Part shown: positions 56,802 to 61,362 of the stretch, one piece after another
How the letters are laid out: every line of letters starts with the position of its first letter
Numbering within the stretch: position 1 is the stretch's first letter
Source of the DNA: a virus
Taxonomy: Duplodnaviria > Caudoviricetes
Virus record (IMG/VR): IMGVR_UViG_3300027278_000003
Length of the DNA stretch: 64,000 nt
Direction: 5' to 3' (one strand)
The notes under the pieces: model-generated
What the model was told of the DNA's origin: nothing
Database searches by the model: none
Seen by the model: only the letters and a program-made list of their open reading frames with translations
Program-made: the position numbers and the translations under genes

Positions 56802-57244
56802 TTGACGAATCATAAAGAATGAACTAAATTATATAAATGTGATGGTCACTGACACAAACCAAAACATCGGGTTGTTCCGTAACGGACACGTGAGAGGTCA
56901 CGGTTAGCTTCTCATTCAGAGTATCCGACAGCGTTAAGGTCGGGCGGGGAGCGTCACTCATTATGATACACGCAAACTGACATTTGGGGAAAAATCTGTC
57001 CCGTGGTGGCGACCACATCTGAAAAAAGTTCTTGACGAATCGGATAAGTTTTGATAAGTTAAGAAAGTTGCGAGAGGGCAAAGGCTAGTAACCAGATGCA
57101 CTCGTAACAAAAAAGAAAAAAAGTTCTTGACAAAGACAAAATAGTTTGTTAGAGTGAGGAACATCAGAAGCGAAACGTGAGTTTCAAAAAAACTTCTGAA
57201 AAAGAAAAAAAGTTCTTGACAAAGACATTAAGTTTTGTTAGAGT
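56802..57244 (+). promoter_or_regulatory. Four tandem sigma70 promoters driving the ncRNA/tRNA locus
   Basis: TTGACG-N17-TAAATT (56802); TTGACG-N17-TAAGTT (57032); TTGACA-N17-TAGAGT (57127 and 57216, duplicated with A-tract UP elements). Confidence 0.75.
56837..57020 (+). ncRNA. Unidentified multi-stem RNA
   Basis: Non-coding; stems GTGATG/CGTCAC, TGAGA/TCTCA, TCCGAC/GTCGGG, GTGGT/ACCAC. Confidence 0.4.
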
Positions 57245-57252
57245 TAGGAACA

Positions 57253-57578
57253 CGCTGTTTGAAAATTTAGAATGTCTTAATCTTCTAGACTTCGGTCGAT
57301 AATGAAGATGGAAACAGATTTTATCTGTTTTCAATTGTGTATTAAGAGCAAAGAAACGTGACAGGTAGGTAGGCTCCTAGGAGTAACGAACCCGTAAAAT
57401 CCTGGTGAGGGACCGAGCGTTGACGAATATGCAATTGTAAACAGAGTTTAAAAACGGCACCTGAGAACGAGTTGCTAGGCAGAAGTTGAACCGTGAAGAT
57501 GGCAGAAGTTCAACTACTCAGTAGAGGGTCACCTATACAAAGCCGTTTTTGTCTATTGCCTGGTGAACAATAGACAAA
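57253..57578 (+). ncRNA. Unidentified structured RNA(s) in the tRNA leader
   Basis: GAC-TTCG-GTC tetraloop, GAAACAGAT/ATCTGTTTT, AAAAACGGC/GCCGTTTTT, AGTTGAAC/GTTCAACT, TTGTCTATTG/CAATAGACAA. Confidence 0.45.
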
Positions 57579-57585
57579 TTTTTAT

Positions 57586-57661
57586 TCCCAGATAGCTCAG
57601 TCGGTAGAGCAAATGACTGTTAATCATTGGGTCGGCGGTTCGAGCCCGTCTCTGGGAGCCA
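57586..57661 (+). tRNA. tRNA-Asn(GTT)
   Basis: Acceptor TCCCAGA/TCTGGGA, anticodon loop CT-GTT-AA, GGTTCGA, encoded CCA. Confidence 0.95.
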
Positions 57662-57666
57662 ATATT

Positions 57667-57756
57667 GGAGGGGTGGCAGAGTGGTTGATTGCACCGGTCT
57701 TGAAAACCGGCGTAGGCGAAAGTCTACCGTGGGTTCAAATCCCACCCTCTCCGCCA
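57667..57756 (+). tRNA. tRNA-Ser(TGA)
   Basis: CCGGT-CT-TGA-AA-ACCGG, long variable arm, CCA. Confidence 0.95.
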
Positions 57757-57758
57757 AA

Positions 57759-57980
57759 TTGGCCCTTATAGCTCAGTTGGTAGAGCAACGAGGTTATTCA
57801 TGTGAATGTTGTGGTATAAGCGAATGGCAGGGTAAACCAATCGTTTTAGAATGCGATCATATTGATGGCAATCACAAAAACAATACACCTGAAAACTTAC
57901 GATTAATTTGCCCAAATTGTCACAGTCAGACGGAAACCTATAAAAACAAAAACATAGGTAAAGGTAGATCGTATAGATAA
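57759..57980 (+). mobile_element. HNH homing-endonuclease domain/remnant fused in frame to the tRNA fragment
   Basis: RGYSCECCG..W.GKPIVLECDHIDGNHKNN..ENLRLICPNCHSQT. Confidence 0.8.
57762..57787 (+). pseudogene. 5' tRNA fragment (nt 1-26), identical to the start of tRNA-Thr at 58050
   Basis: GCCCTTATAGCTCAGTTGGTAGAGCA is an exact 26-bp direct repeat. Confidence 0.85.
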
Positions 57981-58049
57981 AATTTAAATTTTAGCGTATT
58001 AGGAACAACTTTTCGTTCTAAATGCTAAATAATTATATACGAAGATAAT

Positions 58050-58167
58050 GCCCTTATAGCTCAGTTGGTAGAGCAGTTGATTTGAAAGCACACGCGATAA
58101 CGATAGGTTCACAAGGTGTGTTTTCGTAATCATCAGGTCCGCGGTTCGAGTCCGTGTGAGGGCACCA
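58050..58167 (+). tRNA. tRNA-Thr (TGT, or CGT) interrupted by a 42-nt hairpin in the anticodon loop
   Basis: Acceptor GCCCTTA/TGAGGGC-A-CCA, normal D and T arms; removing 58084-58125 gives a canonical 76-nt tRNA with loop TT-TGT-AA. Confidence 0.8.
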
Positions 58168-58177
58168 TTCTTCTTAT

Positions 58178-58262
58178 GCGGATATGGCGAAATTGGTAGA
58201 CGCACTAGATTTAGGTTCTAGCGGGGTAACTCGTGGGGGTTCAAGTCCCTCTATCCGCACCA
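58178..58262 (+). tRNA. tRNA-Leu(TAG)
   Basis: CTAGA-TT-TAG-GT-TCTAG, variable arm, CCA. Confidence 0.95.
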
Positions 58263-58362
58263 AAAAATTTAATACCTCTGTGTCCAAATCATCATGAAAT
58301 GGTTCACAGTAAATATAAAAATGAAGTTACGCCTTTAATAGAAAGGCAAATTTCAGAAAAGT

Positions 58363-58436
58363 GGGGAATTGGTGAAGCGGGATCACGCTAGATTTGCATT
58401 CTAGAATCACGAGTTCGATTCTCGTATTCTCCACCA
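58363..58436 (+). tRNA. tRNA-Ala(TGC)
   Basis: G3:U70 pair, A73, CTAGA-TT-TGC-AT-TCTAG, CCA. Confidence 0.9.
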
Positions 58437-58455
58437 AACATATACTGGAAATTGT

Positions 58456-59196
58456 ATGAAGTATCGCTTGCCGTTCACAAAAGAAACTACATATACTAGA
58501 CATGGCTGGTTTCAATATGCTATGGTACTAAGTTTACCATTTTCTTTTTATTTTTTAACATTAGAACAATGGGTATACAGTCTTTTAGTCGGCTATGTGT
58601 TAGCTATAATTGGTCAAATTGTAGGTCACCATAGATATTTCAGCCATAGAAGTTTTAAACTAAACATCTTTTGGCACTATGTTTTATGTTACTTAACAAC
58701 AGTATTATCTATCGGTAGTGTATTAGAGTGGAGAAGAATGCATCTAGCGCATCACAAATACTCAGATACACAATATGATCCACATTCACCAACGTATAAA
58801 GGTATTTTAAAAGTATTTTTTATATCATGGTTTGATTACCCACAGGGTGTGGCTATCTCCGAAGAATCTGAAAAACTTAAATCAGAAAAAGGTATAGTAT
58901 TCTTTCATACATACTATGTATATATTATACTTTTTCATATTGCAATAGTTTCATTGATTGATCCTAAGTTGCTTTATGCTTTATACTTTTTCCCTCCGTT
59001 TCTTGCGTTAAGTATGGGTTCACTAGTGAATTCTCTTTTACACAATGAAAATGGACCGAAAGACAACATATTACTTGCATTTATTGCAGGAGGCGATGGT
59101 TATCATGCAATTCATCACGAAAAACCGTATTTGGCAACCTATCCTTTCCCAGATTTAGCAGGAATGATCATATCATTGATTAAAAAGAAAGAATAG
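58456..59196 (+). CDS. Membrane fatty-acid desaturase (delta-9 type)
   Basis: His boxes HHRYFSH, HLAHHKYSD..DPHSP, YHAIHH; TM segments. Confidence 0.85.
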   Translation: MKYRLPFTKETTYTRHGWFQYAMVLSLPFSFYFLTLEQWVYSLLVGYVLAIIGQIVGHHRYFSHRSFKLNIFWHYVLCYLTTVLSIGSVLEWRRMHLAHHKYSDTQYDPHSPTYKGILKVFFISWFDYPQGVAISEESEKLKSEKGIVFFHTYYVYIILFHIAIVSLIDPKLLYALYFFPPFLALSMGSLVNSLLHNENGPKDNILLAFIAGGDGYHAIHHEKPYLATYPFPDLAGMIISLIKKKE

Positions 59197-59213
59197 TATA
59201 AATAAACGTATAA

Positions 59214-59288
59214 GCGGGCGTAGCTCAGTGGTAGAGCGTCACCTTGCCAAGGTGAGGGTCGTGAGTTCGAATCTCATCGCCCGCTCCA
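59214..59288 (+). tRNA. tRNA-Gly(GCC)
   Basis: GCGGGCG/CGCCCGC-T-CCA, TCACC-TT-GCC-AA-GGTGA. Confidence 0.95.
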
Positions 59289-59366
59289 AATTCCTAGCAT
59301 ATGATTTGACTATGCCATTCGGGTAACATACTTCCCGTTGAAACAATCACAAAAGTCACTGCTTTA

Positions 59367-59442
59367 GGGAGATTAGCTCAGTTGGTAGAGCGTCTCGTTT
59401 ACACCGAGAATGTCAGGAGTTCGAGTCTCTTATCTCCCACCA
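59367..59442 (+). tRNA. tRNA-Val(TAC)
   Basis: GGGAGAT/ATCTCCC-A-CCA, TCTCG-TT-TAC-AC-CGAGA. Confidence 0.95.
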
Positions 59443-59496
59443 TTTCACTTTCTCAAATCAGATAAATACCGTATAAGTTCTTTATGGGAGAAAGTC

Positions 59497-59757
59497 ATGA
59501 TCAAGCGTACAGGTTTAGCAAAAAGAGTGTCGGCGAAAGCGGCTCCTACTAAAAACGTATCTACACGTAAAAAAACAATTACAAAAACTGTCGAAGCAGA
59601 GGCTGCGCCAATGTTTACATTTAACATCACTGCTGGTGTTGAAAATCTAGGTTCAGTTATTGAAGCAAACGAAGAAGCAGCACTTGCGAAAGCAAGAAAG
59701 AAATTCGGCGCGCCATTAAATTATGGTGTGTTCCAATATACAGCAAAGCGTGTATAA
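59497..59757 (+). CDS. Small Lys/Ala-rich late protein
   Basis: GGGAG RBS; TAAATA at 59463. Confidence 0.6.
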   Translation: MIKRTGLAKRVSAKAAPTKNVSTRKKTITKTVEAEAAPMFTFNITAGVENLGSVIEANEEAALAKARKKFGAPLNYGVFQYTAKRV

Positions 59758-59897
59758 TTAAAGTTTCCAAACGTCAGTTGACGGCGTGACTGTTAGGAGA
59801 GACTAACATTTAAACTACATTTATGTGACGTAACCTTACTTAGAGTATGAAGTGCGTATCACCGAAACTTCCCAAGACATTCTAAATTTTTAAACAC

Positions 59898-59974
<77 letters not shown>

Positions 59975-59983
59975 TTTTTAATT

Positions 59984-60010
59984 GCGGTTGTAGCTCAGTT
60001 GGTTAGAGCA
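59984..60010 (+). pseudogene. Second orphan 5' tRNA fragment (acceptor 5' strand plus D arm)
   Basis: GCGGTTGTAGCTCAGTTGGTTAGAGCA, then breaks off before tRNA-Asp. Confidence 0.7.
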
Positions 60011-60019
60011 TTAAATAAA

Positions 60020-60094
60020 GGACTGTTGGTTTATCGGTTAGAATTCTCGCCTGTCACGCGAGGGAGACGGGTTCGATTCCCGTACAGTCCGCCA
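60020..60094 (+). tRNA. tRNA-Asp(GTC)
   Basis: GGACTGT/ACAGTCC-G-CCA, CTCGC-CT-GTC-AC-GCGAG. Confidence 0.93.
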
Positions 60095-60166
60095 TTAATA
60101 AGATATACTATGACAAATACCGGTACCGTTTGTGGAAAGTGATAACAGTTATAGTATATCTTTTAT

Positions 60167-60241
60167 GGCCCGTTCGTCTATCGGTTAGGACGCTAGGTTT
60201 TCAACCTAGAAAGAGGGGTTCGATTCCCCTACGGGCTACCA
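60167..60241 (+). tRNA. tRNA-Glu(TTC)
   Basis: GGCCCGT/ACGGGCT-A-CCA, CTAGG-TT-TTC-AA-CCTAG. Confidence 0.93.
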
Positions 60242-60254
60242 ATCATTATACTAA

Positions 60255-60288
60255 ATATCATCATGAAAGATATATCATCATGAAAGAT
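60255..60288 (+). repeat. 17-bp tandem duplication ATATCATCATGAAAGAT spanning a start codon
   Basis: 60255-71 and 60272-88. Confidence 0.85.
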
Positions 60289-61362
60289 TTAAAACAGTTG
60301 CAAGAACACTACGGATGTTCTCTGCCTTTTATCAACCAATACGTAGTAAAAGACCCAAAAGGTTACTCTGTTAAGCCTTGTTGCATGTCAACTGTTACCC
60401 CACCAGAGTATGTTGATACCTATAAAGAATTAAAAAATCATAAAATTATAGAAGAAACCCAAAATGCTTTTCTAGAAAAGCGTTGGCCTTCCACCTGTAC
60501 GATTTGTAAACTAGACGAAAGCGCCGGAGAACGCAGCTACAGGCAGAGCATGTGGTACAGACATATAAACCACTTTGAAACCAAAAAATTAGTATGGGAT
60601 CTACGGTTTGATAACGTTTGTAATCTAAAATGTATAATGTGTAACCCTAGTAACAGCAGTAAATGGAACGAAGATTTAGACATTTACAACCAATTCAATG
60701 ATACAAATATTGTAGAACATTTTACCCGAAAAACATCAGACATTGACGACATATTAAATGAATGCAGAAACACCGCAATTGAGATAAACCTATTGGGCGG
60801 TGAACCATTTTATAGCAAGAATACGTTTGATTTCATAGAACGACTTTCGGCTAATGTATGGAATACTGAAAATACTGAATTAATATTCGTCAGCAATGGG
60901 AACGGGTTGAACAACAAATGGATAGAATTGTTAAAGCGTTTCCGAAAAATATCAATAATGTTAAGTTTAGATGGTGTAGGTGAGTTAGCAAACTACATAA
61001 GATACCCAACCGATTGGGATCAATATTTAAAAAATGTTGACATTATAAAAGAGAACAATTGGAATCTAGCGTTTAATATAACTTGGAGTGCGTTAAATCT
61101 ATATCAACATAATGAAATCATAGAGTTTTGTAAACAAAATCATATAAGACGCAGAAATAACATTTTACATAATCCAAATTATCTAGGCTTTAATGCACTA
61201 AAAAATTTGAAGCCTATAGGTGTTAAAAACATAGATTACTACATAGAAAACCACCACGAGTACGATGATACTCTAAATAAAAAATTAAAAAACTATCTAG
61301 AAACATTGGACGCCAAACGAAACTTGAATAGTAAAAATTTAATGCCATGGTGCTGGGAATGA
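60280..61362 (+). CDS. Radical SAM protein with N-terminal SPASM/twitch-type Cys domain (paralog of 15712)
   Basis: CSLPF..KPCC..C..CK; CNLKCIMC; GGEP; SNG; SLDG..NYIRYP; start corrected to exclude tRNA-Glu. Confidence 0.85.
   Translation: MKDLKQLQEHYGCSLPFINQYVVKDPKGYSVKPCCMSTVTPPEYVDTYKELKNHKIIEETQNAFLEKRWPSTCTICKLDESAGERSYRQSMWYRHINHFETKKLVWDLRFDNVCNLKCIMCNPSNSSKWNEDLDIYNQFNDTNIVEHFTRKTSDIDDILNECRNTAIEINLLGGEPFYSKNTFDFIERLSANVWNTENTELIFVSNGNGLNNKWIELLKRFRKISIMLSLDGVGELANYIRYPTDWDQYLKNVDIIKENNWNLAFNITWSALNLYQHNEIIEFCKQNHIRRRNNILHNPNYLGFNALKNLKPIGVKNIDYYIENHHEYDDTLNKKLKNYLETLDAKRNLNSKNLMPWCWE

Follow-up and report, generated by a model that had tools for sequence, protein, structure and literature searches.

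In bacterial 23S rRNA, intervening sequences (IVS) are removed by RNase III, and the resulting fragments remain unligated yet functional. RNase III products carry 3' overhangs with 3'-OH and 5'-phosphate ends, which ligases of the Rnl1 type can join without previous healing. In phage T4, Rnl1 acts in tRNA repair, in such a manner that the nick made by the nuclease PrrC is healed by Pnkp and then sealed by Rnl1, and a related ligase, Trl1, serves for tRNA splicing in yeast and plants. To our knowledge, RNase III-dependent splicing of a tRNA has never been described. In the process known as collaborative homing, the target of a free-standing endonuclease coincides with the insertion site of an intron (PMC3984707). 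SegB of T4 is a free-standing homing endonuclease located in the phage tRNA cluster (PMC13096335). Finally, the Lak megaphages contain "enigmatic" tRNA introns with no known mechanism of removal (Devoto et al. 2019, PMC6784885).

Here, a tRNA-Thr gene interrupted inside its anticodon by a 42-nt hairpin was analyzed in a large phage. The window, meaning the whole stretch of 64,000 nucleotides under analysis, corresponds to the minus strand of an IMG/VR virus record (IMGVR_UViG_3300027278_000003) of 342,181 bp, with an estimated completeness of 92%. Its composition and gene content fit a jumbo phage, which is read with the standard code and occurs mainly in marine metagenomes. The features of the locus are collected in Table 1.

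Table 1. Features of the interrupted tRNA-Thr locus, in positions of the window.
Feature	Position	Strand	Remarks
Two promoter-like sites	57127..57244	+	TTGACA-17-TAGAGT, each with TG, spacing 89 nt; upstream of the array Asn-Ser-...-Thr-Leu
tRNA-Asn(GUU) and tRNA-Ser(UGA)	57586..57756	+	Intact, start of the array; same order in the sister strain L256
tRNA-Thr 5'-end fragment, 28 nt	57762..57789	+	Acceptor strand, D arm and first 2 nt of the anticodon stem
HNH homing-endonuclease remnant	57789..57980	+	C-terminal catalytic core, about 63 aa
Spacer	57981..58049	+	57996-58049 homologous to the spacer between the two intact Thr genes of L256
tRNA-Thr(UGU) 5' exon	58050..58083	+	tRNA positions 1-34; to 58084 in the other boundary reading
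42-nt insertion	58084..58125 (alternative register 58085-58126)	+	10-bp stem with one G-U, 22-nt loop
tRNA-Thr(UGU) 3' exon	58126..58167	+	tRNA positions 35-76, CCA encoded
tRNA-Leu(UAG)	58178..58262	+	Next gene of the array; Thr-Leu(UAG) adjacency also in L010, L175, L180 and L256

The Rfam tRNA model (RF00005) matched positions 58050-58164 from end to end, with 53.2 bits against a gathering threshold of 29 and covering model positions 1-71, and ARAGORN, run on 58001-58200 with introns allowed, returned a tRNA-Thr(tgt) of 76 nt interrupted at 35/36 by an intron of 42 nt. Together with the uninterrupted alleles presented below, these data bear out the initial annotation, which had recognized a 42-nt hairpin inside the anticodon of a tRNA-Thr at 58050-58167. 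Its description of every arm as canonical holds for the acceptor, D and T arms but not for the anticodon stem, where a U-U mismatch is found at 28-42; the same mismatch is present in uninterrupted copies of the gene. Removal of the 42 nt does leave, as had been stated, a 76-nt gene with the anticodon UGU, and this gene does not differ from uninterrupted tRNA-Thr(UGU) genes. One redundant G makes the boundary ambiguous, so it can be placed at 58083/58084...58125/58126 or at 58084/58085...58126/58127, and UGU is restored by both. A further register giving CGU, through which the choice of splice site could set codon specificity, had also been suggested; the comparison of DNAs places the boundaries at 34/35 or 35/36 and lends it no support, and the idea that UGU and CGU registers could be chosen between is wholly conjectural.

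The insert folds with -12.8 kcal/mol (z = -3.4), a value equalled by 2 of 200 shuffled sequences. When lonely pairs were disallowed, the lowest-energy fold of the 118-nt RNA was a cloverleaf of -40.6 kcal/mol, whose anticodon arm continues into the insert hairpin through 16 pairs with one bulged U. This predicted extended stem includes the pairs U32-A38 and U33-A37 and a U34-G35 wobble, followed by the stem of the insert, with U36 as the bulged base.

An identical 76-nt gene without the 42 nt was found in four unrelated IMG/VR contigs (L006, L008, L011 and L012). The nearest comparison is provided by a sister strain (L256, a 2.7-kb contig from ENA), 98.4% identical over the desaturase gene, 300 nt downstream. 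Its array has the order Asn-Ser-Thr-Thr-Leu-Ala, with two intact Thr(UGU) genes in tandem, and the second of them (L256:823-898) is exactly the uninterrupted 76-nt form, with the same spacer, trailer and tRNA-Leu. The 42 nt are a true insertion in an orthologous Thr gene. The insert-bearing form, for its part, was recovered with zero mismatches over 4.2-5.7 kb in five assemblies (the source record L252 and four ENA or JGI samples), and the Logan contigs of run X1 match it exactly. Run X15, from another study (2021), has the insert unchanged; three differences fall in the upstream spacer, and neither the tRNA nor the insert shows any. An assembly artefact as the source of the interrupted gene is thereby ruled out. 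The neighbouring protein is indexed in 63 collection blocks, and the insert is present without mismatch in every long assembly compared; the interrupted allele is the dominant form sampled. As the variants diverge by only about 1-2%, the zero changes in 118 nt are no significant evidence of constraint. A search of IMG/VR for close relatives through the desaturase gene found none, and the variant contigs reached through the upstream 83-aa protein end before the Thr locus. Among the runs listed as containing the 156-nt stretch used as a probe, none is an RNA run, and the contigs of RNA run X19 correspond to related tRNAs only, with none across the insert, a result that is neutral on expression.

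Neither the window nor the genome contains the insert a second time, only chance 9-14-mers being matched, and its origin as a repeated or mobile element was rejected, given that it is single-copy in both. Searches with 20-22-mers of the loop and of the 5' half against 596 Gb of genomes gave 0 matches and 1 chance match; the core of the insert had no match in viral contigs, and no Thr gene of this type with any insert of 13-43 nt was found among the viral or metagenome contigs searched, from which records of this genome or its near relatives may be missing. A stem pattern with a free loop produced 35 metagenome and 3 viral matches, a number close to chance expectation, none of them in a tRNA and all in unrelated contexts. 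Same-site insertions with covarying stems, a survey of which the initial annotation had proposed, were not found among the viral, metagenome and genome collections searched; with the insert confined to one phage lineage, there is no covariation.

A scan for insert-bearing, tRNA-like viral stretches recovered 100 distinct examples (112 loci), most of which belong to a family different from the insert studied here, as judged from its sequence module. Its members (L063, L080, L086, L110, L118, L079, L100, L131 and L140) are viral tRNA-like genes with canonical D and T arms. In genes of the L063 type, a conserved short hairpin followed by ACAGCAA replaces the anticodon loop, with compensatory changes among the hairpin copies. 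Apart from this family, three viral tRNAs (L114:678-754, minus strand; L152:2346-2427; L087:630-720, minus strand) seemingly contain hairpins of 22-36 nt in the anticodon loop, and in one hairpin-bearing example, a tRNA-Phe(GAA), the insert lies between positions 32 and 33. Flush hairpin inserts may thus recur in phage tRNAs. A crude motif check of 10 loci of insert-bearing viral tRNAs found an HNH or GIY-YIG nuclease near one of them (HNH, 1.1 kb away), and a general link between insert-bearing tRNAs and nearby nucleases is unsupported by this check.

Regarding expression, no terminator-like site was found between the promoter-like sites and the Thr gene, for which reason the interrupted gene is probably co-transcribed with the array. 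Both identical promoter-like sites are carried by an 89-nt direct repeat at 57110-57252, and in the variant from run X15 the contig skips 88 nt of this repeat, leaving a single copy. ARAGORN and Infernal agree on 28-29 tRNAs in the whole genome, and neither of them detected an intact tRNA-Thr gene, so the interrupted gene is the sole Thr tRNA of the phage; Tyr and Trp tRNAs are missing from the set as well. Threonine accounts for 6.8% of the phage codons and ACA for 51% of the Thr codons, a usage like that seen in the other family boxes with a retained U34 tRNA.

Other tRNA loci of this phage also show peculiarities. Outside the window (G000:C1:132737-132811 and 131539-140659), the genome has a tRNA with the amber-suppressor-like anticodon CUA, seven tRNAs with the anticodon CAU, and two ARAGORN oddities, Phe(AAA) and Ser(ACU). 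In the interval 58263-58436 of the window, around 100 nt that contain an HNH-like motif (NLIPLCPNHHEMVH) with no Pfam match separate tRNA-Leu from a tRNA-Ala(UGC) whose D arm is unusual. At the counterpart of this interval in the sister strain (L256:909-1078), a canonical tRNA-Ala follows straight after tRNA-Leu. To judge by its layout, the interval looks like a second and older event in which a nuclease came with a replacement tRNA. The sister strain has in turn a 173-aa HNH-like gene between tRNA-Gly and tRNA-Val (L256:2016-2537) that is absent from the strain studied, indicating that nuclease gene content varies among otherwise near-identical strains.

The context of the gene offers a more ordinary origin for the insert than those considered in the initial annotation, which had left out the HNH remnant and the duplicated tRNA 5' fragment. 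This remnant is located 70 nt upstream of the interrupted gene and matches Pfam HNH with 24.3 bits and PHROG HNH families with E 3e-26. Its core is fused in frame to the tRNA-Thr fragment, and its own RBS and start and the Cys-rich N-terminal region are absent. Aligned to full-length relatives of 122-136 aa, it misses about 58 N-terminal columns, and its IMG/VR relatives have 127-212 aa. With the N-terminal residues, RBS and start missing, the nuclease gene is a wreck, truncated and no longer active. The core is 64.8% identical to phage genes annotated as homing endonuclease, one of them named F-TflIV. The 28-nt tRNA fragment has 26 nt identical to 58050-58075, and over its 28 nt it is fully identical (28/28) to the Thr allele of L005 and L009. 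Fragment and truncated HNH stand in the place of the first Thr gene of the sister strain, which has neither the HNH remnant nor the insert at its Thr genes; the strain studied has both. A derivation of the insert from the missing N-terminal DNA of the nuclease was rejected, since no similarity between the two was found.

The HNH family has more than 585 relatives in IMG/VR. Among the best 80 of these loci, tRNAs were present at 78, and a Thr gene was found within 150 nt at 44 of the 78. Thr genes make up 47 of the 116 tRNAs adjacent to the HNH genes, versus 11 of the 229 non-adjacent ones. On these genomic counts, the family is tRNA-Thr-associated. In L180, a Thr 5' fragment reaching to position 27 is followed by an RBS, an HNH gene of 122 aa (L180:1303-1671), a complete Thr gene and Leu(UAG). 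In L175, the same 27-nt fragment as in the studied locus abuts a different, complete (replacement) Thr gene, after which a 131-aa HNH gene and the remnant of a tRNA 3' end are found. Fragments ending at position 27 in both contigs indicate that the family inserts at 27/28 of Thr genes, and the hairpin is located 6-8 bp downstream of this point. The 5' fragment of L180 (L180:1237-1276) has a 9-nt D-loop insertion relative to the complete gene (L180:1673-1748). Four other contigs (L205:1089-1173, L231:1089-1173, L206:1699-1784 and L236:973-1056) contain unusual tRNA-Thr(UGU) genes, 84-86 nt in length, whose variable region is long and whose D arms are non-canonical. Each adjoins a full-length HNH gene of the same family: in L205 and L231 it lies 6 nt upstream, in L236 63 nt upstream, and in L206 at the 3' end of the gene. 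Such Thr genes may be nuclease-resistant replacement copies.

The best reading of these data, which we give a little less than an even chance, is that the hairpin is a strain-specific insertion tied to the invasion by a tRNA-Thr-targeting HNH endonuclease, and that it breaks the target of this enzyme. We infer this from position and co-occurrence. According to this proposal, the endonuclease recognized or cut the anticodon-arm DNA of Thr genes, in such a manner that the second Thr copy would be a target of the incoming nuclease, and an allele split by the insertion would be immune and, for this reason, retained. Gene conversion could also have carried the immune allele into uninterrupted alleles that had been cut, as happens with ORF-less introns in collaborative homing. 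Later, the nuclease gene would have decayed, leaving the insertion behind. Transcription of the interrupted gene as part of the array probably continues, and its RNA would be trimmed to a tRNA-shaped molecule of 118 nt with an anticodon arm of 16-18 bp, which fairly probably is not matured into a decoding tRNA.

Several observations favor this homing-linked origin. The insertion is recent in lineage terms, as indicated by the identity to L256 over the desaturase gene; the remnant and the tRNA 5' fragment lie immediately upstream, and the family to which the remnant belongs is associated with tRNA-Thr and shows the same architecture in L180 and L175. The only sister strain available for comparison lacks remnant and insert together, the HNH core resembles annotated homing endonucleases, the interrupted allele dominates among the sampled forms, and collaborative homing offers a precedent (PMC3984707). 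On the other side, target breaking is deduced from position only, and other genomes with this family keep an intact Thr gene beside the nuclease, so insertion is not the usual route to immunity. The co-occurrence of HNH and insert comes from one strain pair, and the insert-bearing run X15 has no contig over the HNH core at >=85% identity, from which it follows that insert and nuclease may be separable. In addition, a 10-bp hairpin flush with the ends of the insert is unlike a repair scar or filler, a shape that speaks for either RNA-level selection or some special origin, and exons identical to uninterrupted copies, with ACA as the main Thr codon, fit a gene that is still used.

These last points lead to the explanations in which the insert is an intron. 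As the initial annotation had argued, it is neither a group I or group II intron nor of the bulge-helix-bulge type. Its 42 nt fall far below the about 200 nt or more of a group I core (P3-P9), and no group I intron, ribozyme or other RNA family matched Rfam within 57000-61000 at E<=1, nor did the insert itself contain a tRNA-like or other Rfam match. Of the ends expected for group I, a U before the intron fits only the 34/35 register and a terminal G only 35/36, so that neither of the registers, which are ambiguous by one base, has both. In the predicted fold the junctions oppose each other within a continuous helix with a single 1-nt bulge, and no bulge-helix-bulge is formed; protein-spliced introns of archaea and eukaryotes use such a motif or the 37/38 position, and the insert is at 34/35 or 35/36. 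An EndA-type endonuclease (PF01974) and RtcB (PF01139) are absent from the 342-kb record, in which the controls respond, and the phage has neither an Rnl2-type ligase nor an RNase III gene. A larger group I-type intron of 321 nt with the HNH as cargo, delimited in 57762-58167 by ARAGORN on the whole genome (option -i, Thr(tgt)), deserves practically no credence. A U at the end of its 5' exon and a G at the end of the intron would be as expected, but the resulting tRNA would be 85 nt long, its D and anticodon stems would be separated by two bases, its variable region would have 13 nt, and its anticodon would come from inside the hairpin arm; no group I match is found at E<=1, the supposed intron would hold a complete second 5' half, and L256 shows that the downstream gene is a complete unit. 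A splicing model that needs no ribozyme is possible, though doubtful. In this model, a host enzyme of the RNase III type would cut both strands of the 118-nt precursor, the phage having no RNase III gene of its own, and a phage ligase of the Rnl1 type would join the exons. Cuts after G35 (58084) and before U36 (after 58126) would release the hairpin with a 2-nt 3' overhang and leave 3'-OH and 5'-phosphate ends, whose ligation would give tRNA-Thr(UGU). Consistent with it, the predicted fold places the hairpin coaxially with the anticodon stem and keeps intact the arms needed for end processing, and the 35/36 reading offsets the junctions by 2 bp with 3' overhangs; such a stagger, however, is near-automatic for a flush hairpin with one redundant base, and the helix around the proposed cuts (about 9 bp above them and 7-8 bp below) is shorter than suits RNase III. 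Of the joining enzymes that had been suggested, RtcB is missing, as said, while a T4 Rnl1-type ligase is present outside the window, at L013:958-2088 (minus strand). It is a full-length homologue (PF09511, 91.7 bits; PHROG 562, E 2e-69) that aligns to T4 Rnl1 structures over residues 59-366, C-terminal region included, and is adjoined by a P-loop AAA_33 kinase (PHROG polynucleotide kinase, E 3e-11) and a phosphohydrolase, these two assignments being weaker. The full-length ligase with its two neighbours speaks for splicing, but Rnl1 modules are common in large phages for tRNA repair, which makes an intron needless to explain them. It also counts in favor of splicing that the interrupted gene is the only Thr tRNA among the 28-29 and that the share of ACA matches the boxes with kept U34 tRNAs, to which it can be opposed that a set already without Tyr and Trp tRNAs is incomplete anyway. 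The identity of the exons to uninterrupted genes elsewhere, the clean hairpin in place of random filler, the promoter-like sites without a terminator suggesting co-transcription, and the unexplained tRNA inserts of Lak megaphages, one of them in a Thr(TGT) gene (PMC6784885), fit the model too; the lack of homologous inserts, and hence of covariation, and a neighborhood full of decaying elements do not. By analogy with the ORF-less introns of collaborative homing, splicing would be compatible with the homing-linked origin, but the joint proposal, in which the hairpin would be a protein-dependent tRNA intron processed by a host dsRNA nuclease and the phage Rnl1 and would double as immunity or homing partner of the HNH, appears unlikely.

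Two further explanations dispense with splicing. The gene could be a plain pseudogene, for a tRNA that was not needed, hit by an accident of neutral or slightly harmful effect in which the nuclease had no part, with exons too young to have decayed. The restriction of the insert to one lineage, the uninterrupted state of L256, the low divergence that makes the unchanged 118 nt uninformative on constraint, and the precedent of Tyr and Trp tRNAs already missing agree with this. Filler, however, would very rarely form a 10-bp helix from its ends (z = -3.4), the insert has no source copy in the genome, it lies within 6-8 bp of the insertion coordinate of a Thr-specific nuclease with a remnant of this nuclease 70 nt away, and the interrupted genotype was assembled in many samples, for all of which we judge such an accident quite improbable. 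Lower still, at only a slight chance, stands the proposal that the unspliced 118-nt RNA is itself the product, either as a tRNA-shaped decoy or as a masked pro-tRNA against host anticodon nucleases. Its acceptor, D and T arms are intact, so this RNA should be trimmed and stable, and the tRNA clusters of phages are known to be contested by defences that cleave tRNAs (PMC13096335). Against it, conservation of the element stops at one lineage, two ordinary Thr genes serve the sister strain well, no Thr-specific anticodon nuclease is implicated, and the loop matches no known Rfam RNA family.

Even as a nuclease-linked disruption and nothing more, the locus would provide a clean example from nature of how homing endonucleases remodel phage tRNA arrays, in which a widespread 342-kb marine phage would have lost both of the Thr genes kept by its sister strain. 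Should the RNA be matured, it would give the bacterial world its first worked-out case of short tRNA splicing without a ribozyme, the Rnl1 modules that large phages carry would gain a function beyond repair, with damage repair turned into splicing, and a mechanism would be at hand for the unexplained tRNA inserts of Lak megaphages. A pair of strains with and without the insert, a defined junction and an identified ligase gene make the locus directly testable.

Compared with the described systems, the Lak inserts share with this one their location in the anticodon region of phage tRNAs, including Thr(TGT), their polymorphism among related genomes with identity where present, and boundaries one base off the predicted ones. 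The Lak Thr insert, however, is predicted to encode a tRNA (PMC6784885), whereas the insert studied here is a bare hairpin in a marine jumbo phage with the standard code. Like the IVS of 23S rRNA, it is a strain-specific hairpin that extends a helix of a conserved structured RNA and is absent from close relatives, but a tRNA cut in its anticodon would need ligation. The sealing half of an anticodon-loop pathway such as T4 repair or Trl1 splicing is present in this phage, with a full-length Rnl1, a kinase and a phosphohydrolase; in contrast, T4 repairs damage and removes no insert, and no endonuclease partner was found in the studied phage. With SegB and F-TflIV, the locus has in common a nuclease gene among phage tRNA genes flanked by partial tRNA duplications, although these enzymes are not described as leaving a hairpin in an anticodon, and the family found here shows a marked preference for tRNA-Thr. 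The closest parallel is collaborative homing, where a free-standing nuclease gene likewise adjoins a conserved gene split by a short ORF-less insert, the insert is close to the site of the nuclease family, and insert-free relatives exist. The nuclease studied here differs in being truncated and in that positional evidence is what links its site to the insert, and the 42 nt, having no ribozyme core, cannot self-splice as the introns of collaborative homing do. By analogy, the insert would thus work most like an ORF-less intron accompanied by a free-standing homing endonuclease, minus the ribozyme that defines such introns.
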